From Octopus sinensis (Eukaryota): a DNA stretch of 64,000 nt. The translations under genes were made by a program, and so were the position numbers. The first letter of the stretch is position 1, and every line of letters begins with the position of its first letter. The notes under the pieces are model-generated. The model worked only from the letters and a program-made list of their open reading frames with translations, had not been told where the DNA came from and did not search any database. The DNA is taken from positions 8,556,001 to 8,620,000 of the forward strand of contig NC_043013.1 of assembly GCF_006345805.1 (NCBI RefSeq). The letters are read 5' to 3'. Shown here one piece after another: positions 1,545-59,132 of the stretch.

Positions 1545-1760
1545 TGTATCTTTTATTGGTTTGTCATTAGACTGTGGCCATGCTGGGGCACCACCTTGAA
1601 GAATTTTTAGTCAAATGAATCGACTCCAGTACATATTTTTTCAAGCCTGGTACTTATTCTATCAGTCTGTTAGGCCAAACTGCTAAGTTACGGGGACACA
1701 AACACACCAACGTCAGTTGTCAAGTGGTGGTGTGAGGCAAACACAGACACAAAGACACAT

Positions 1761-2487: not shown

Positions 2488-3295
2488 TGAGCTGGTAGAA
2501 TCATTAGCATGCTGGACACAATGTTTAGCAGCATTTCATCCATCTTAATGTTTTGAGTTCAAACTCTTCAGAACTCAACTTTGCCTTTCATCCTTTTGGG
2601 ATTGATGAAATAAGTACCAGTTGAGCATTGAGGGCCACTGAAGTTGACTAGCTCCTTATTTCTTTACTGACCACAAGGAGCTATACACAGAGGGGACAAA
2701 TAAAGACAGACAAACGGATTAAGTTGATTACATCGACCCCAGTGCGTAACTGGTACTTAATTTATCGACCCCGAAAGGATGAAAGGCAAAGTCAACCTCG
2801 GCAGAATTTGAATTCAGAGTGTAGTGTCAGACGAAATACCTATTTCTCTACTACCCACAAGGGGCCAAACATAGAGGGGACAAACAAGGACAGACATAAG
2901 TATTAAGTCGATTATATCGACCCCAGTGTGTAATTGGTACTTAATTTATCGACCCCCGAAAGGATGAAAAGCAAAGTCAACCTCGGCAGAATTTGAACTC
3001 AGAATGTGGCAGCAGACGAAATACCTATTTCTTTACTACCCACAAGGGGCTAAACATAGAGGGGACAAACAAAGACAGACAAACGGATTAAGTCAATTAT
3101 ATCGAACCCAGTGCGTAACTGGTACTTATTTAATCGACCCCAAAAGGATGAAAGGCAAAGTCAACCTCGGCAGAATTTGAACTCAGAATGTAGCAGCAGA
3201 CGAAATACTGCTAAGCATTTCACCCGATGTGCTAACGTTTCTGCCAGCTCGCCGCCTTAGTTGACTAGCTCCTTCCCTGAAAATTTCAGGAGATT
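2488..3295. mobile_element. Old SINE-B copy (+) containing a SINE-B trimer (2658-3258, -)
   Basis: Nin/Deu-domain-like core GGTCGACTTTGCCTTTCATCCTTTCGGGGTCGATAAATTAAGTACCAG. The trimer is flanked by a 16-bp TSD AGTTGACTAGCTCCTT (2642-2657, 3259-3274). Confidence 0.85.
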
Positions 3296-3469
3296 ATTAA
3301 TCTTGTGCTTGGAACATAAATTAACATGAAATTTTGATGGAAAATTTTGATTTAGACTACTTTAACTCATTCGTAACCATATTCCTGTAAAAATACAATG
3401 CCTTGGTTTCAAATAATGAAGTCAGTTACAAAACTTTGCCATTTTTAAACAGTTGTTTGGAATATATAT

Positions 3470-4272
3470 TGGTTTCTATTTTTGGCACAAGGCCAGCAAT
3501 TTCATGGGAGAGTGTAAGTCAATTGACTCTAGTAATCAACTGGTGCTTATTTTGGCATGACTCCTGAAAGAACAACTGATACAACTCCTGAAAGAACAAA
3601 AGACAAAGTTGACCTTGATGGGACTTGAACTCAAAATGTTAAGACGGCTGAAATATCCTTTCTAGTAAAGGCACAAGGCCTGGAATTTTGGAGGAGGGGA
3701 CTAGTCAATTATATTGACCCCAGTGTTCAACGGGTACTTATTTTATCAACCCTAAAAGGATGAAAGGCAAAGTAAACTTCAACGGAATTTGAACACAGAA
3801 TGTAAAGATGGACAAAATACCACTAGGCATTTTGTCCAGAGTGCTTACAATTCTGCCAGCTAACCGCCTTATTTGGAATATAAATTGGTTTCAAATTTTG
3901 GCATAAGGCTGGCAATTTCGGGGAGGGGGCAAGTTAATGACCTTGACCCCCCAAATTACGCTGAGGTCGACTTTGCCTTTCATCCTTTCAGGGTCGATAA
4001 ATTAAGTACCAGTTACGCACTGGGGTCGATGTATTCGACTTAATACCTATGTCTGTCCTTGTTTGTCCCCTCTATGTTTAGCCCCTTGTGGGTAATAAAG
4101 AAATAGGTACTTATTCCATTGACACCAATGCCCAACTGGTACTCGTTTCATTGACTTCCAAATGGATGCAAAGGCAAAATCGACTTCAGCAGAATTTGAA
4201 CTCAGAATGTAAAGATAGATGAAATGCCACTAAGCATTTTGCCTGGCATGCTAACGGTTCTGCCAGCTTACC
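3470..4272. mobile_element. Cluster of decayed SINE-B copies
   Basis: Three degenerate minus-strand copies and one plus-strand fragment (~3957-4105) of the Nin-domain SINE. Confidence 0.75.
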
Positions 4273-4894
4273 AAATTCTTTAAAACATAAATTAACATGA
4301 AGCGTTAATGGGAGATTTTTAATTTAAATAACTTTAAAACAGGAAGCTTGTATCATTTGACCAAGGGTGGTCTCATGCGGATTTGTATCAAAATTATCGT
4401 GTTGATACAAAATCACATACAGCAAAATCTTGACCATTACATGCCTACTGAACCATAGTGGTTAATATAGTTGTGCAAGTCACTGATTAATTAAAATACA
4501 AAGCTAATTAATCTATTTACATTGCATATGTAGAGTGTCTGGCCATTTCAGTGGCTTGACTCAGTAAGAGAAAAAAATGTTTTTGTAATGTTTTATAAAA
4601 TGGTGCTCCTTTACAAGATAATTATACAATTTATATGTTACATCCAGCCAAGTTATTGATTTGGCAAGAATTCAAGCCAAAAGGAATACAAGAAACCAAA
4701 GATTAACTGAGTTAAATAAATGCCAAGTTTTCATTTTAAAACGTCCCCACACTAAATTTCGGTAAGTCAGTTGGAAAGTGTTTCTTGAAAATATATTTAA
4801 AGATTCTTCTAAAATTCTAAAATATTATTTTGTTCTGGTATTGCTTTGTTCATGCAGAATTGGTTCTGGACAACAACAGTAATTAACCTTTATA

Positions 4895-4905
4895 TGCACA
4901 CACAT

Positions 4906-4989
<84 letters not shown>

Positions 4990-5211
4990 GTTTGTGTTTG
5001 CTTCCCACCATTGCCTGACAACCGATGCTGGTATGCTTATGTCTCCATAACTTAGCAGTTCAGCAAAAAGTAGCTGATAGAATAAATATTAGGTTTACAA
5101 AAAATAAGTCCTGAGATAGATTTTTTCGCTTAAAAAAATCCTTTAAAGTGGTGCTCCAGCATGGCTGAAGTCAAATGACTGCAGCAAGTAAAAGAATAAA
5201 AGAATAAAAGA

Positions 5212-5212
<1 letters not shown>
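4895..5212 (+). repeat. (CA)n followed by 3' half of SINE A
   Basis: CA array, then ...GGTGCTCCAGCATGGCTGAAGTCAAATGACTGCAGCAAGTAAAAGA tail. Confidence 0.8.
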
Positions 5213-5246
<34 letters not shown>

Positions 5247-5256
5247 TATATATATA

Positions 5257-5553
5257 TAGGGTGTGGTGAAAAAATTGTTGTGTAAATTACGCAAAAATGA
5301 AAATAACACTTATCTCATTTTAACAGATATATTTACCAAAAATACATAAAAATAGAATAAAATGCTAAAGAGTAAATTTATTCAATAAAATCGCCATTGG
5401 CTTCAATCAGAGCCCCAGACGACTTTGGAATCTAGTGCAATACTTCTGGATGTTCTCCATGTTTAAGTTGGTGAATGCTGCCATAATTCTTGCCTTCAGT
5501 TCATCTTTGGTGTTACAAGGAGTTTTGTTGGTCTCTCACTCAACTGCACCCAC
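5257..5553 (-). mobile_element. Tc1/mariner-superfamily (maT/DD37D-like) transposon 3' end
   Basis: Minus strand encodes VGAVE*ETNKTPCNTKDELKARIMAAFTNLNMENIQKYCTRFQSRL/(frameshift)IEANGDFIE*, a typical maT C-terminus, with the stop at 5378-5380. TIR-like (C/T)AGGGTGTGGTGAAAAAATTG lies next to a TA array. Confidence 0.8.
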
Positions 5554-5930
5554 TCTTTGGATGATTTAAGTTGCTTTGGTAGTATTTCTTTCCACCAAAT
5601 AATGGATTAAAAAAGTATGGAAGACCCTACATGCAAAAAAACTATGTACATACAACAAATTAGAGAAAATCTTGTGTAAACCATTGTTTTCCCCAATTTG
5701 TCCATTTACGCAGGAGCTAGGGGCAAAATGTTAAAGTGCATAACCATCCTCAGGACATAAGTGTGTGTGTAAAGTTTGGTGAGAATCGGAAGAGAATTGT
5801 GGAAATGTATGTGTTAGTCGATACACACACACACATACTGTGATTTATATACACTAGACTAGCAAACATACCTGTCCTTTGAACGGTTTAAGTTGCTTTG
5901 GTGGTATTTTTTTCACCAAATAATTGAACT
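5554..5930 (-). mobile_element. Non-autonomous Helitron-like element, head-to-tail tandem junction
   Basis: Minus strand reads a subterminal hairpin remnant CCGTTCAAAGGACAGG..TTTGCTAG|TCTAGTGTATATAAA. TTTAAGTTGCTTTGGTRGTATTT is repeated at ~5565 and ~5887. Confidence 0.6.
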
Positions 5931-7499
5931 ACCAAGAAGGTTTATGAGTAGCACGGCAATCTATGTTTCCAATTAACCTAGGAATGGAAAACCAAATTGA
6001 AGGCTGGTTATTGTGGAGATCATTGCACTTTAATGATCAAAGAACATATAAGTTTGCAAGCGATGCAAAGTAGAGCTACTGAAGTGTTTTGGGAGTAGAT
6101 TACAGATAATGACTACAAAATGTAGTTGTTTTACATGAAAGTGAAATTTCTTGTCAGAAACAGCCACATAAATGGTGTAAGGAAATTGAAGGAAGACATT
6201 GAAAGTTCCCCTCTGAAAGTTTATTTTATTCAACAGCAAAGGAAGTTATTTTTTTAGAACGATAAGCTAACAAAAGCTCCTTTATTCTGTCTTCCTACAT
6301 AGCATGCACATAAACTAACAGCAAATGCTGCATAAAGTTAAATTGGTATGGAGCTTCCTGAAAGACATGTATAGCTTTCACTTGTGGAAGCAAAACTCTT
6401 GTTTAAAGGTTGATTCTTTGGGACGAGTCATATGTGAGTGTTTAAAAATGGCTAGAATGACAATCTAAGATGTAATATCAACAAATAGAAGACCAAGAAG
6501 GGAACATTCCATTTCGAGTAACTCAGAAAAGGTAAAGGTAAGCTTGCCAAACTTTAATGCCATTTAAAAATAGGGATTAAGATTGTTTGGTATTGGATAT
6601 TCATCATGTACAGTGTTCAAAGTCAATTTAATCACTGTCACAGGTAGAGAGATGAAATAAATAAATAGACAAAATTTGCACGGTTCTACGAAAGAGTTGT
6701 ACAAGCCCAAAGGATGTGGAAACAAGAAGTAAACTGAAACCCTTGTAGCAGTGGATTCGATCCCACACTTAGCCACATGGTAATCTCAATCCACAGTTCA
6801 GTCATAGTTTGAGCATATGCAACAATCAAGATTTTCTCCAATAAACAACTGTTGTTCACGTGATAGTTTGGTGGCCTAACTAGAACCTTCCATGAGCAGG
6901 GTCTACAAATACAGCCATATTGAGTGGCAAAATTCAGAGTGTTTTGGGTTGAGTTGTGTTACACTCTCCCAATAGCAGTTCTGACAGCTGCATATTCAAT
7001 CAAGGATAATCAAAGATGCATTATGGCACCTTAATATTTACTTGGTATATAAAGAAAATTAACCCCTGTGTTGAGTTGCTAACAGATACTTTCTCTTTGT
7101 GTCATATTACACTGTTTCATCCAAATGTTTCCATTAATTGTATTGCATGAACACCTTTCCTATTAATGTAACAAATACATTAAGTTCAAACACAATAAAA
7201 AGAGAACATGATACATCCTGTTACACCCTTATAGCCATGTCACCATTCGAGAAACTTTCTTTTGGTATAAAGTTACAAATCTGATTAAGTCTGGAAGAGT
7301 CAACAGTTTTAGTGAGACACAACCATATGTTACCAATCATTTCCAACAAAATCCATACAGTTCAATACGGCAAGCTTTAAAAGTGCTCTCTGTTTCACAC
7401 AGCTCTACCTTTCCCATGCTATTATATTCAAATATAATGGCATGGGAAGATTTCAATTATGGATAGTTTAGACATTAACTGACAATGGTAAACATACAA

Positions 7500-18237: not shown

Positions 18238-18621
18238 GGCGCTAGCATGGTTGTGTGATTTAAAAGCTGGCTTTGCAACGAAATGGTTTCGGGTTCAATC
18301 CCACAGCATGACACAGCATTGGGCAAGTGTCCTCTGGTATATCCCCAGACCGACTAATGTCTTGTGAGAGAATTCGGTAGACAGGAGCTGTCTGGAAACC
18401 CGTCGTGTAAAGGCGCTGGCGAGGCTGTGTGGTAAGAAGCCTGCTTCCCAACCACGTGGTTCCGGGTTCAGTCCCAGTGCGTGGCACATTGGGCAAGTGT
18501 CTTCTTCTATAGCCTCGGACCGACCAAAGCCTTGTGGGTGGATTTGGCAGACGGAAACTGAAAGAAGCCCGTCATATATATGAATATATATGTATATATA
18601 TATATGTGTGTGTGTGTGTGC

Positions 18622-18987: not shown

Positions 18988-19051
18988 TATACACACACAC
19001 ACACACATTATTTACAATGGACGGATAAATGTCCTCATCCTCTTTGTTGTT

Positions 19052-19097
19052 ATCACAACATTTCGACTGATGTACTCTCCAGTCTTCATCAGGTGTT
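19052..19097 (-). ncRNA. Minimal type I hammerhead ribozyme motif in inverted pLTR
   Basis: CAC-CTGATGA-A-GACTG..CAGTC-GAAA-TGTT^GTG. Confidence 0.65.
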
Positions 19098-19561
19098 CAA
19101 TGTGAAATTTCGAACCCAACCCTTTATTTGACTAATGAGGTACGCTGTTCTCATTCCTAAGGTATGTTGCTGATGTTATTATTGAGGAGTTGGCCATGAA
19201 GATTCCAAAAGCTCAGGGGGATGAACTAAGATGGAAAATGAGACAGGTACTAGAGAAGACGAAACTTCCTAAACGAAACATAACTATGGAAGAAACGTTC
19301 GCTATTAGAACATTACAGAGTGACAGTTCCGTCCTAATACTTCCAGCGGACAAGGGCAATGTTACAGTGGTAATGAACAAGTCTGAATACTCGGAAAACT
19401 TGGCAAGTCTCATAAGTGATGGTAGCTACAGCAAGATTAAGAAAGACCCACCTCCGAAAACAGAGAGGAAATTCAGTTCTGTATTTAAGAGATAAGGAAT
19501 TATGTACTTTATTTACATTATTTACGTTTGACTGATATTTGTCCTCATCTTGGTTGTTGTT

Positions 19562-19607
19562 AACACAAGGTTTCGGCTAATATACCATCCAGCCTTCATC
19601 AGGTGTC
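19562..19607 (-). ncRNA. HHR motif, left arm (two substitutions)
   Basis: GACAC-CTGATGA-A-GGCTG..TAGCC-GAAA-CCTT-GTGTT. Confidence 0.6.
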
Positions 19608-19746
19608 TTTGGGGAAACTTCGAACCTGGGTTCTCATTCCTAAGGTATTTTTCGATGTTATTGCTATTGTTATTATTCAGGTCCACTGCCTGGAATCGAA
19701 CTCGGAATCTTGGGTTTAGTAGCCCACCACTACGCCACATGCTCAC

Positions 19747-19819
19747 GGGCATATGGCGTAGTGGTTAAGAGCGCGGACTACTAACCCCAAGATTCCGAGT
19801 TCGATTCCAGGCAGTGACC
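19747..19819 (+). promoter_or_regulatory. tRNA-derived internal Pol III promoter (pseudo-tRNA)
   Basis: A box TGGCGTAGTGG (19754-19764) and B box GAGTTCGATTCC (19797-19808) at tRNA spacing. The acceptor and T stems are mismatched. Confidence 0.75.
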
Positions 19820-19830
19820 TGAATAATAAT

Positions 19831-19864
<34 letters not shown>

Positions 19865-19911
19865 TCGAAAAATACCTTAGGAATGAGAACCCAGGTTCGA
19901 AATTTCCCCAA

Positions 19912-19957
19912 GACACCTGATGAAGGCTGGATGGTATATCAGCCGAAACGTTGTGTT
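19912..19957 (+). ncRNA. Minimal type I hammerhead ribozyme motif, intact core
   Basis: Stem I GACAC/GTGTT, core CTGATGA, stem II GGCTG/CAGCC, GAAA, palindromic stem III AACGTT; predicted cleavage after GUU (19952). Confidence 0.8.
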
Positions 19958-20832
19958 AACAACAACCAAGATGACAAATATCCGTCAAATGTAAATATAG
20001 AGAGGAAGTTATCACAGATCTTAATCAAGAACAAGATGACTTCATACCAATGAAGTACAGACAACTGACCTAGCACTACAATAAGCTGCCACACATGTAC
20101 AGTCTCCCGAAGATTCATAAGGATGGTATTACATTAAGACCTGTAGTGAACTGTAGGGATTCAGCATGTCATCCACTGGGCCGCTTCCTTGTGAATATAG
20201 TCAGTCCATTAGCAGGTAAGTGAACGTCGTATGTGAAGAATTCCACTCACTTCACAGAATTGATCAAGGATACTCCTATTGGATCCAACCAGATGGTGAG
20301 TCTAGATGTAATAAGTCTTTTTACCAAAGTCCCAACTAATGAAACACTATCAGTGATTCAAGACAAACTAGTGATGGATACAGCTCTAAAAGAACGCACT
20401 AGTATACCAATAGAAAACTTGATGGAAATGTTGGCTTTCTGCGTAGAAATTACCTATTTCAGAGTAGATACTAATATATATCGACGAATGAGGGTTTAGC
20501 TATGTGTTCGCCATTATCACCAGTAATAGCCAATATATACGTGATATACTTTGAGAATTTGGCTTTAGGATCTATACCATTAAAGCCAACCCTATGGCTT
20601 CGATATGTTGATTACACATTCATACTCTGACCCACACCAAGAGGATGTCTCAGTACTACTAGATCATGTGAACTAAACAAAGCCATCCATACAGTTCAGA
20701 ATCGAAATGGAAAAAGACAATCAGTTGGCATTCCTGGACGTATTAATAATACGCACTGAGTATGGGTTCAGGACATCCGTATACCGCAATCCAACCTTCA
20801 CTGGACAATACTTGAACTTCATTTCCCACCAT

Positions 20833-21124
20833 TTTTTGGTTTGTTTGTTTGTTCCTTCTCGAGCCACGCTTGGCTCATAAGGGCCGGTTTCCCGGTTTCT
20901 TGGCGTATAGGTTCCCCGAAGGTGAGCTGCAAGATGCAGGAGGAAAGAGTGAGAGAAAGTTGTGGCGAAAGAATCAGCAGAACTTCGCCATTACCTTCTG
21001 TCGGAGCTGCGTGGAGCTTAGGTGTTTCGCTCATATACACACACATCGCCCGGTCTGAGATTCGAACCCGCGATCCCTCGACCGTGAGTCCGCTGCTCTA
21101 ACCAATAGGCCATGTGCCTCCACA
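20833..21124 (-). mobile_element. SINE family D (tRNA head, (ACAA)n tail) inside the PLE
   Basis: 13-bp TSD CATTTCCCACCAT (20820-20832, 21125-21137); A and B boxes; second copy at 58265-58568. Confidence 0.92.
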
Positions 21125-22908
21125 CATTTCCCACCATACATACAGTATAAAGAGAGGGATTTCTCAGTGACTAAAACATTGATCAAAGACTATATAAGTA
21201 GCGATCCTGATACACACCAGGAAGAAATGACCAGGCTAAGAAACAATCTGCTATGCATCAACTACCCAAAGAACATAGTATCCACTCCAATTAGGAAGAG
21301 GAGAGGGGATGAAACCCATAAACTGAGCACAGTCTGTCCACCTTATGTCAAAGGCCTCTCGGAAGAGATTTAAAAAATATGCGGTCCATATGACATCAGG
21401 ACAGTATTCAGAAGTAACGCAACACTTTGCAAATATTTTCTCCGAGTAAAACCACCTATAGAAAAAATATATAACCAAAAACTGCGTATATTCGATCCCA
21501 TGCAATTGTGGTAGGTTATACAAAAGCAAAACATGTTGCCCCCTTAAAGTAAGGGTAGCGGAACATCGTAAAGCTGTGATACGAGGGTATGTTGAAAAAT
21601 CGGGTATAGCCGATCATGTAAGGAAAAACGGAGACTACCGCTCGCTGTAGGATGAAGTTAAAATAATCGACAGAGAACACCACTGGAAAATACGAAAATT
21701 CAAAGAGGCTGCACATATGCTAAGCAGATCTAGTTGCAGATATGAATGTAATATGGGAGCCAGTAATAAGAAAAGATAAAATACAAAGTTTATAAACCCT
21801 AAAATTCGTTCTATAGTTGCCCACGGACATGTAGCGTTGTGGATACTAACCCTCTGATTCTAAGTTCAATCCCAGGCAAATCAATGAAACAAGTACATGA
21901 TATGGAATTAGAACTCTTCCTTGTGTTCCGATAAAAAAAAGCGGCCAATTTTTCCATTAATCGAACAACCTGTCGACTGGATTAGCGTGTAAATTTGATC
22001 TGTCAACCCAAGCCATAGTAGACATTTTCCCATCATTCAACATACTGGAATCGAACCTTTAACCTCGTGGTCTTAAACATTCAGCCAATACATGCGACCT
22101 CACATATAAACACGTATAACTTGTATCCCTCAAACTGTAGTTTTACAAGCTCATTTATCACGAACTCCCGAAGCTACGAGATATATATACAAATTGTCTG
22201 TGAAATAAATATGTATGTTCGTTGAGAAAAATACCCTTAGGAAGAAAAGAAGAAAGTTTAGATATACAAAACTTAGTTACTAAAATCAACATTATACGAA
22301 ATAAATTTGAGAACGAAGTCCGTATAGCAATACATTGCTGCTCAGAATAAAGACAGACAACGTCGTACAATCTATTATGTAAATGGCATACCAGAACTGG
22401 ACAATCACTAATGAGACACGAGATCCAATACTCCTAGTATTTTTGTTGTAGCTGCTTTCGTTTTTTTTATTAGACGAACTCATTAACTTTGCTTTTAACC
22501 AAAAAACACCATTATATACAGCTAGACAAAGTTAAGTACGTTTACGCACACATAATATAATTACATTATTTGCTCAGGGAAGTAGGTAATGTTTCATTTT
22601 AACGTTGGTTAGGTTTTTTTTTCTTTTACATAAATGAATGTCCTATACCCTGTAACTTATAAAATTACAATAGACCAGTGAGCTGTGTTTGAAGAGTATA
22701 TGGAAGGAAGAGGAGGATGGGTGTGAGGTGGATCTAACTGAGGGAGAAACTAACGTGCATTGGTTGAGGGTTAGGTAACTTTACAAGAGATGTATGCATG
22801 TATATGTTTGTTTGCATGTATGTATGTATGTATGTATGTGTGTGGTGTGTGTTTGTATAGCTAGACAGAAAGACATGTTTGTGCATTTGTGTCTGTATAA
22901 ATACATAA

Positions 22909-22957: not shown

Positions 22958-23421
22958 CTCTTTTTACTCTTTTACTTGTTTCAGTTATATGACTGTGGCC
23001 ATGCTGGAGTATATATATATATACTCTTTTTACTCTTTTACTTGTTTCAGTCATATGACTGTGACCATGCTGGAGCACCGCCTTTAGTCGAGCAATTCTT
23101 ATTCTTTGTAAGCCTAGTACTTATTCTATCGGTCTATTTTACCGAACCGCTAAGTTACGGGTGTAAACACACCAACATCGGTTGTCAAGCGATGTTGGGG
23201 TGGGTGGGACAAACACAGACACATAAACATATACACACACATATATATACACATAAACGACGGGCTTCTTTCAGTTTCCGTTTACCAAATCCACTTACAA
23301 GGCTTTGGTCGGCCCGAGGCTATAGTAGAAGACACTTGCACAAGGTGCCACGCAGTGGGACTGAACCCGGAACCATGTGGTTGGTAAGCAGGCTACTTAC
23401 CACACAGCCACTCCTACGCCT
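22955..23421 (-). mobile_element. SINE A with duplicated tail segment
   Basis: Family A consensus; the tail occurs twice (22957-23009 and 23022-23075). Confidence 0.88.
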
Positions 23422-23912
23422 ATATACATATATTTACACAAATATATTGTATGTATATGTACGTTGTATATATACACACATGTATATGTACGTATGGATA
23501 TATATACATATCCACACATATTGAGAGTATTCATTACACACACACACGCACACACACACACACACACATCACTGAGGCATAGCGATACAATAACCTGGTA
23601 TTAGAACTCAGTGTTACATGCTTCAAAATAAAGCGTTTGTCGAGTATGAAATTGAATAGAAGACAAAGGAATCGAAAATCATGCAAGGAACTGCATTAGT
23701 TTACAGATGTTTCTGCCATAAATTGGTGTGCACTCAGAGCTCATAGCTTCCCCGGAGCTTCAAATTCACGCACTGTTCGACCTACAAGAAATAACAACCA
23801 AATCTCCTTCGTTATCACCACGCAGCCTTGTTACAAAAAAAAAAGAAAGAAAGAAAGAAAAAAGACGGAAAGGGATATTGGATAAGAAAACAAGAAAAGC
23901 AGTATGTTTATA

Positions 23913-58264: not shown

Positions 58265-58568
58265 TTTACGTTTGTTCCTTCTTGAGCCATGCCTGGCTCA
58301 TAAGGGCCGGTTTCCCGGTTTCCTTGGCGTATAGGTTCCCCACCTGAACGGGACGCCGGCCCGTCGCAGGTGAGCTGCAAGATGAAAGAGTGAGAGAAAG
58401 TTGTGGCGAAAGAGTCAGCAGAAGTTCGACATTACCTTCTGCCGGAGACGCGTGGAGCTTTTAGGTGTTTTGCTCATAAACACACACACATCGCCCGGTC
58501 TGAGATTCGAACCCGCGATCCCTCGACTGCGAGTCCGCTGCTCTAACCACTAGGCCATGTGCTTGCAC
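58265..58568 (-). mobile_element. SINE family D
   Basis: Homologous to 20833-21124; flanked by the repeated CATAGTACTTATT. Confidence 0.9.
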
Positions 58569-59132
58569 ACATAGTACTTATTACTAAACTATACTCGTTC
58601 GTGAGTGACGGCTGGCTTCAAACAGTTACAAATATTTTGAATCTATCTCAAAAAATTATTTGGCTTGCCAGAATATTTAATGAAGAACACAAGTCCAAGT
58701 AATTTTCAACATCTGCTTATTTACAACAAAACTTTGCATTTGAATATTCGATAGACACAACGCATAATCATAAGTAAGATTCTTTTGAATTTTTCTAAAA
58801 TATAATTCGACTTTCCAATAGATTTATCGAAGCGAAATGATGCAGACAACGATAATATCCCGTGTAATTTTGATAAATTTCTATTTACAAAAATGTTCTA
58901 AATATAATATTTGGTAGGTGTAACGTATGACTACAGTTACATATGCTTAGGAAATTTTTGAAAACAATATATTGATCCTGTCGGGAATGCCTCTGTTCTA
59001 GTTGAAACCAAAACTTTATATGACTATTATGATTTTATGTGACATTGACACCTATGCATGCGTCTCTTCGTTTGTGATATGTGTGTTTATGTGCATCAGC
59101 TGTTTGCATATGCATATACATACATACATACA

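Follow-up and report, generated by a model that had tools for sequence, protein, structure and literature searches.

A stretch of 64,000 nucleotides of Octopus sinensis DNA (assembly GCF_006345805.1, contig NC_043013.1, positions 8,556,001 to 8,620,000; hereafter the window, whose own numbering is used) contains, at 19008-21878 and in AT-rich animal DNA dense in microsatellites and short interspersed elements (SINEs), what is by its sequence a decayed, 5'-truncated Penelope-like element (PLE) of the Penelope/Poseidon type. The open reading frame (ORF) of this host element is broken by two insertions, a palindrome with a target site duplication (TSD) of 9 bp and an unrelated SINE with a TSD of 13 bp (Table 1). 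Comparison of the palindrome, the ends of the host and further copies of the family in public contigs allowed us to reconstruct the pseudo-long terminal repeat (pLTR) of the family. As read from these sequences, it is about 260-290 nt long and, following the stop codon and a 22-nt spacer, consists of a hairpin, a tRNA-like head with A and B boxes, an (AAT)n array, a linker, a minimal hammerhead ribozyme (HHR) lying over the ORF start and an optional tail. This structural claim we regard as very probably correct, while the question of how such a repeat would be transcribed and multiplied leads to a more tentative model.

Table 1. Features of the host Penelope-like element and of its two insertions, in window positions; L and R are the left and right arms of the palindrome.
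Position	Strand	Feature	Matches and further marks
19008..19183	-	Inverted, 5'-truncated host pLTR piece: (AAT)n end, a linker carrying 27 additional nt, minimal type-I HHR, first ORF codons	ends at the 'short' end
19052..19098	-	Host minimal HHR (core 19061-19092)	stem II GACUG/CAGUC; single mismatch in stem I; palindrome of stem III decayed to AUGU
19184..19470	+	PLE ORF piece 1, N-terminal domain with DKG motif, 5'-truncated	protein matches; 55% to P0165
19462..19470	+	Left TSD copy of the insert, 9 bp	AGAGAGGAA
19471..19998	.	Palindromic insert, 528 bp, two pLTRs head to head	arm L 19471-19745 (-); arm R 19746-19998 (+)
19471..19518	-	One-sided extension of about 48 nt (PLE 'tail')	9 nt of it duplicate the adjoining end; lacking in arm R and in the host 5' piece
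19562..19607	-	Arm L minimal HHR	stem III reads ACCU, its palindrome broken
19672..19744	-	Arm L tRNA-like head	9-nt deletion between A and B boxes
19740..19751	.	Central hairpin	axis of the palindrome at 19745/19746, 1-2 nt 5' of the tRNA-like +1
19747..19819	+	Arm R tRNA-like head	A box 19754-19764; B box 19798-19808; 44 nt from box start to box start
19822..19862	+	(AAT)n array, arm R	
19912..19957	+	Arm R minimal type-I HHR	intact ACGU stem III; predicted cut after 19952; overlaps in-frame PLE ORF start region
19999..20007	+	Right TSD copy of the insert	
20008..20832	+	PLE reverse transcriptase domain with stops and frameshifts	about 45-46% to P0016/P0165, E~1e-69
20833..21124	-	Unrelated tRNA-head SINE inside the reverse transcriptase/ORF	13-bp TSD at 20820-20832 and 21125-21137
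21138..21795	+	PLE thumb and C-terminal GIY-YIG-type endonuclease	P0001, 76%
21796..21817	+	Spacer of 22 nt from stop codon to hairpin	common to other copies
21818..21878	+	Host 3' pLTR start: decayed hairpin 21818-21829 and tRNA-like head (+1 at 21825)	A-like box 21832-21842; B box 21863-21873; cut at 21878

Four collinear pieces of the host ORF align with P0165, an intact PLE protein of 861 amino acids, at 55, 46, 37 and 65% identity with E values down to 1e-69, and P0016, a cluster mate of P0165, carries Pfam RVT_1. In translation the host has a single ORF in which an N-terminal DKG domain is followed by a PLE-type reverse transcriptase (RT), a thumb and a C-terminal nuclease lacking a Cys-rich insert, which we take from its motif to be of the GIY-YIG type. 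The C-terminus of P0001 sets the frame of the last piece, with the stop codon, TAA, at 21793-21795. Five protein matches were obtained for the first piece (59-74% identity), four of which are named Octopus sinensis (66-74%), and one of the six matches to the host ORF is a predicted protein of O. vulgaris. Six window pieces had no real match in Pfam, comparison of the RT with PDB returned distant RTs only, and no relatives of P0016 were found among the viral and prokaryote contigs. The architecture fits the definition of the Penelope/Poseidon group (PMC3846280, PMC8557442; the cited sources are represented throughout by excerpts of their text).

The insert has the make-up of two pLTRs placed head to head, which is a known signature of Penelope elements, and belongs to a younger subfamily. 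Homology of the inverted host piece, 19008-19183, to the insert had been proposed in the initial annotation and holds for both arms (108-112 nt at 78-80% identity, E~1e-19). The arms differ from each other at 13 of 221 aligned letters (208 identities), whereas a global alignment of arm R with the host piece gives 119 identities and 21 mismatches (21/140) and leaves a 27-nt segment confined to the host. With about 6% between the arms against about 15% and an indel of 27 nt between arm R and the host, the insert cannot derive from this host copy and must be younger, from another subfamily. Of the suggestion that the palindrome is a non-autonomous derivative of this PLE lineage, the common lineage is retained, given the tail of the palindrome, its TSD and its in-frame match to a PLE N-terminus.

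The ends of arm R and of the host piece lie no more than about 4 nt apart, and arm L extends about 48 nt beyond, as does the tail described for PLEs (PMC8557442, PMC11167929, PMC3846280). The pLTR carries a minimal type-I HHR overlapping the first ORF codons, with 97% of the compared cells paired; in sense translation, the HHR and the bases downstream of it are in frame with residues 22-63 of P0165, and only 0, 1 and 6 of 2000 shuffles were as good for arm R, arm L and the host, respectively. A similar arrangement is described for anole Poseidon, in which the ORF begins inside the HHR and the tail is delimited by two internal sites of RT initiation (PMC11167929), and for Adineta, in which the pLTR holds the first codons and a 5' palindrome, the tail is on one inverted copy and the TSDs measure 8-10 bp (PMC3846280). 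The locus likewise has an inverted pLTR at the 5'-truncated end, a one-sided tail and a variable TSD, since the host is without a TSD and the insert has both the tail and 9 bp. Because the HHR-tail region matches a PLE N-terminus, the ends of arm and host agree and the anole and Adineta pLTRs are alike, we take the module of the palindrome to be the pLTR of the family.

Antisense HHR-tail translations fused to RT or endonuclease pieces were also considered in P0002, P0015 and P0040 (3 of 175 proteins, scores 50-52) and rejected as lying within the null, in which the best of 40 draws scored 40-53 and one scored 94. In these three proteins and in P0081 and P0008, the latter two judged by eye only, the non-PLE parts resemble HHR-tail translations joined to RT/nuclease pieces, as inverted pLTRs at other breakpoints would give; we treat this as a lead only.

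Behind the ORF, the decayed match to the tRNA-like head noticed at 21818-21877 proved to be real, with 48 of 61 letters shared with the arm R head over 21818-21878 and one 13-nt gap. By BLAST alone the match to the arm heads is marginal (E=0.045), and 2 of 1789 window tiles, both heads of another SINE family, exceed its local score against the arm head (40 and 37 versus 36). None of 5000 shuffles reached that score, and in end-free alignment the segment scored 58 and 53 against the two arms versus 5-19 against four other SINE heads.

Other copies of the element were sought in contigs of four of the 24 runs listed (including X1, from organism A, X6, X9, from organism D, and X10) aligned to 21400-22100 at 80% likeness; summed contig depth is not copy number, and individual contig pieces are quoted from the 32 listed of about 2,180. 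Over 21736-21879 the summed depth is 2,600-6,000 in X1 and 220-645 in X9, and beyond this it falls to 48-86 and 0-8, with the step at the exact end of the head and the level of a single contig from 21880. At 21878 the window is left by 21 of 1284 contigs in X1 and 16 of 792 in X9, and the consensus of these loose ends begins GGGACTTGAAAAATAATATC, 16 of whose 20 letters equal the continuation of arm R. Two of the pieces listed come from other copies and bridge the ORF end and the head, namely X1 record 7 (21736-21878) and X6 record 24 (21769-21878), the latter continuing past 21878 for 686 letters unlike the window, and X1 record 5 spans 21561 to 21845. Within the spacer, positions 21808, 21809 and 21816 carry other letters in 21-25 (X1), 3 (X6) and 18-22 (X9) contigs, the contigs sharing another letter at 21816, between stop codon and hairpin, numbering 21, 3 and 18, while at 21831, within the head, the letter of arm R is found in 9, 1 and 8 contigs. 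X10, which we guess to be an RNA run, has no cover at 21736-21831 and little beyond and bears on expression neither way. A public contig, X6 record 17, covers 21400-22100 with a single difference, although it may stem from the same DNA source; since it spans the stretch, 21400-22100 is not an assembly artefact.

Since the ORF end leads into the head in other copies too, this segment is part of the terminal repeat of the PLE family. The proposal that it lies in the pseudo-LTR of this lineage is supported by copies in two organisms that run from the ORF end through the head into an arm-like continuation, the AAT-type linker, and copies lacking the tRNA-like segment after the ORF, named beforehand as the observation that would count against it, did not emerge from the contig alignment.

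Two further features of the contig alignment concern the nuclease end of the ORF. Many contigs (39 in X1 and 25 in X9) have extra ORF sequence at position 21722, which points to a short deletion near the ORF end of the host copy. Summed depth peaks at 21640-21711 at more than 100 times the 3'-end level (720,000 in X1) and suggests that far larger related PLE subfamilies share this nuclease stretch.

In the host copy the module is divided. The same tRNA/HHR module had been expected at both of its ends; the two halves are indeed there, the head alone at the 3' end and the (AAT)n-HHR-tail part alone at the 5' end, and neither end holds the whole. The head stops at 21878, the inverted piece starts in (AAT)n some 10-20 nt further along the module, and this piece meets the ORF at a shared ATT. 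The host would accordingly be an older-subfamily copy whose single pLTR was split at (AAT)n, with the head left at the 3' end and the remainder inverted at the 5' end, and one insertion event with an internal inversion, comparable to the twin priming of L1, may explain the split. A standard inverted 5' piece combined with a later deletion of the 3' pLTR fits too, because the flanks of the host copy show no TSD (not even a 5-mer in common) and the sequence beyond 21878 is not pLTR-like. We rejected a decayed pLTR continuing past 21878, as it does not rise above shuffles (310-749 of 1000 score as well). Bases 21879-21897, directly after the cut head, weakly resemble the 3' end of an abundant SINE (E 0.045-0.55) and could mark a deletion breakpoint.

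The head itself is best preserved in arm R, where both boxes agree in full with what we take to be the A and B box consensus, at tRNA spacing and with the A box at tRNA position 8, and it may work as a Pol III (RNA polymerase III) promoter. Runs of four T (T4) are absent from the sense strand of either arm and of either host piece, which is compatible with such a role and is not unusual at such length. The small central hairpin that had been described in both insert and host is present in the insert (-3.6 kcal/mol); its host counterpart has one mismatch and barely folds (-0.1 kcal/mol). The ORF-linked copy already has the 5' arm of the hairpin, and the axis of the palindrome falls 1-2 nt before the tRNA-like +1.

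HHR cores were found at 19061-19092 (-), 19571-19602 (-) and 19917-19948 (+), that is, three in the window versus none in 100 window shuffles. The core is intact in all three and the ACGU palindrome of stem III in arm R only. All belong to the minimal type, in which stem II is preceded by a bulged base and stem III is a palindrome of 4 nt, a form that has been described for PLEs (PMC4209133). The compensatory change claimed for stem II is there as described, with GACUG/CAGUC in the host and GGCUG/CAGCC in arm R, while arm L has a G-U at the fifth position; as covariation it is not significant, since among these three sequences only 1 of 12 pairs changed on both sides, 171 of 500 shuffles reached as much, and two changes would fall in one of five pairs by chance in 11% of cases. 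We have therefore rejected covariation as evidence for the HHR stem.

A scan for the HHR pattern gave 0 loci in viral contigs and one unrelated locus, L001, in metagenome contigs. This is a 714-bp, 94% perfect palindrome (1322-2035) in an AT-rich contig, and its midpoint falls in stem II of a type-I hammerhead of the minimal form (1649-1681, minus strand); no tRNA head was seen in it and its likeness to the window is limited to 46 nt of the HHR.

The position of the palindrome axis suggests a model for the origin of the insert. A tRNA or a tRNA-derived SINE would have given the head to the pLTR, and Pol III, initiating a few bases before the tRNA +1, would produce a short pLTR RNA with the hairpin at its 5' end. 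The PLE protein would initiate reverse transcription internally at the tail sites, as in anole Poseidon, so that the RNA would need no defined 3' end and a ragged Pol III 3' end would be harmless. Once complete, the cDNA would fold back at its 3' end through the hairpin and so prime second-strand synthesis. The product would be a palindrome of two head-to-head arms, only one of them tailed, with a TSD of 9 bp, and each palindrome would restore the hairpin upstream of both heads, so that the cycle could repeat as a SINE-like passenger. Self-priming by the hairpin is plausible and, having a precedent in PMC3846280, not new in itself. Taken as a whole, from capture of the head to the repeat cycle, we judge the model to be slightly more probable than its negation. 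The bolder statement, that the pLTR of an autonomous Penelope element is a Pol III unit from which a self-renewing palindromic SINE arose, mobilised by the Penelope machinery by way of internal RT initiation and fold-back of the cDNA, is put forward tentatively and at somewhat less than even chances. The palindrome may have spread independently as a SINE-like element, the alternative being an ORF-less pair of inverted pLTRs from a younger autonomous subfamily.

Several observations weigh against this interpretation. Rfam gave no tRNA match for the arm head and no hammerhead match in the window, and ARAGORN, which found 0 genes at its default setting, needed its threshold lowered to 70% to report the arm R head and to 60% for the host head, and the isotypes that it gave disagreed. 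When the end of a cDNA was modelled on either arm R or the host head, it folded as DNA no better than shuffles (z 0.67 and -0.30), both hairpins being mutated, and T4 runs in the PLE ORF are not depleted (2 observed versus 2.8 expected), for which reason Pol III transcription of the whole PLE is not supported. The in-frame comparison with P0165 was chosen post hoc and in part reflects the conserved HHR core, plain BLASTP giving E=0.64, and a database search found no octopus protein starting in the HHR-tail frame, which is weak evidence. The 64-kb window holds one such palindromic insert, and the missing TSD of the host belongs on the same side. As for the contigs, agreement at the loose ends is just 0.73-0.78 and ORF-less copies may be included; no single contig with ORF, head and HHR together was seen among the pieces listed; and the depth dips to 445-1,100 (X1) and 59-65 (X9) at 21838-21843, where both bridging pieces cross without a listed insertion, which makes an intact 44-nt box spacing in the autonomous subfamily no more than putative.

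The most serious competitor is that the head is a mere passenger, an old SINE or tRNA fragment fixed in a pLTR that is transcribed by RNA polymerase II, as in other PLEs, and that the palindrome arose by an ordinary, extreme 5' truncation, to a pLTR plus an inverted pLTR, from RNA of a younger autonomous subfamily and does not propagate by itself. In PLEs, inverted pairs of pLTRs bearing a tail and a TSD are commonplace, and the pLTRs of A. vaga carry TATA/Inr-like motifs (PMC3846280); here too the stop codon is overlapped by a TATAAA (21791-21796) that lies 29-34 nt before the tRNA-like +1, T4/T5 runs occur undepleted in the ORF and the box spacing of the host head is shortened. However, arm R keeps both boxes at full consensus and 44-nt spacing, with the axis at the tRNA-like +1, and one X9 loose-end consensus is without the TATAAA. 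The 27 nt found only in the host pLTR are also missing from the arms, as a trimmed derivative would lead one to expect, although a subfamily difference fits this as well. We consider the passenger explanation less likely than not. More improbable still is the reverse direction, in which a tRNA-derived SINE first took the HHR-tail from a PLE and a PLE subfamily gained the head later by template switching or recombination with SINE RNA: tRNA-head SINEs are numerous in the window, PLEs commonly switch templates (PMC3846280) and the head is undated in autonomous relative to ORF-less copies, but in many copies from two organisms the ORF passes without interruption into the spacer and the 5' arm of the hairpin, and the host copy is more diverged than the insert. 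That 21818-21878 is an independent SINE remnant behind this one ORF, as the weak pairwise BLAST match, the loss of pLTR likeness after 21878 and the faint SINE-like bases there might suggest, is largely refuted and highly improbable, given that other diverged copies bridge ORF and head and that multi-copy cover stops exactly at 21878-21880 in two organisms.

The SINE inside the RT domain has at least six relatives within the window, for instance 58270-58572 at 85%. Two copies of another abundant SINE, the one whose 3' end is weakly resembled by 21879-21897, lie in opposite orientation (18405-18619 and 23213-23427), bracket the locus and are 87% identical over 215 nt.

The reading of the head as a Pol III-type promoter bears on two questions, how Penelope elements make their inverted ends and whether SINEs can use Penelope elements. 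With the axis of the palindrome at the +1 of the tRNA-like head, an exact RNA start and an exact fold-back primer are predicted, so that both questions can be tested on one 250-nt RNA. A tRNA-like, Pol III-type promoter sequence in a ribozyme-bearing PLE repeat may explain how SINE-like elements ride on Penelope machinery, and suggests that an octopus repeat resembling a tRNA-derived SINE is really a Penelope terminal repeat. If the model is true, the locus provides a direct SINE-Penelope pair in which the autonomous parent still carries the head, as well as a model for the origin of promoter-plus-hammerhead elements such as Sm-alpha.

The nearest SINEs by taxon are OK, OR1 and OR2 of Octopus, reportedly described as tRNA-derived by Ohshima and Okada in 1994 and said to be of Arg origin. 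They share the genus and the tRNA-derived head with our element and were compared by description only, identity with one of the three being possible. OR1 and OR2 carry a CORE-SINE label, and 235 hammerhead loci are reported from the giant squid (PMC6962438, PMC4824008, PMC4758252, PMC5804259). A tRNA-derived SINE is a single unit with a LINE-derived or simple-repeat 3' tail, whereas the insert is head to head, has the ends of a PLE pLTR and keeps its (AAT)n internal.

Much of what we describe is already known in parts: HHRs, 5' palindromes, tails and inverted pairs in pLTRs, ORF-less pLTR derivatives, and a Pol III promoter with an HHR in SINE-like elements of schistosomes. The element resembles Penelope/Poseidon PLEs such as anole PAc and Adineta Pen2/Pen3 (PMC11167929, PMC3846280, PMC8557442, PMC4209133) in its RT with C-terminal GIY-YIG, its 5' truncation with an inverted pLTR piece, its minimal type-I HHR over the ORF start, its one-sided tail, its 9-bp TSD and a 5' palindrome of the pLTR that is read as self-priming. 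The steps that form the inverted ends are called unresolved (PMC8557442, PMC11167929, PMC3846280), the head-to-head form being explained by self-priming on an antisense template (PMC3846280). Unlike the pLTRs of those elements, whose promoters are TATA/Inr-like or unspecified and for which the excerpts mention no tRNA-derived part, the octopus pLTR starts with a tRNA-like A/B-box head and (AAT)n. A tRNA-derived head in a PLE pLTR was not found in searches of the open-access literature, Repbase, Dfam, subscription journals and supplements lying outside its scope and prior annotation being possible.

Like the animal non-LTR retrozymes (bioRxiv 10.64898/2026.07.22.740005), which carry a type-I HHR, and the non-autonomous Chlamys/MRC1 (PMC8557442), the insert is an ORF-less derivative of a PLE pLTR. 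Those elements are head-to-tail tandems, with a type-I HHR per unit in the retrozymes, or monomers, and no tRNA head is reported for them in the text available, whereas the two HHRs of the insert lie on opposite strands and no cis dimer is possible. The closest parallel in design is Sm-alpha/Sj-alpha of Schistosoma, in which a Pol III-type promoter precedes a hammerhead in a short non-coding repeat (reviewed in PMC6765202). These occur as tandem or dispersed direct units and that review names no autonomous partner for them; the octopus unit, in contrast, forms a head-to-head palindrome whose HHR is minimal, and its head is also found behind a PLE ORF, which links the schistosome-type promoter-plus-hammerhead design to an autonomous PLE.

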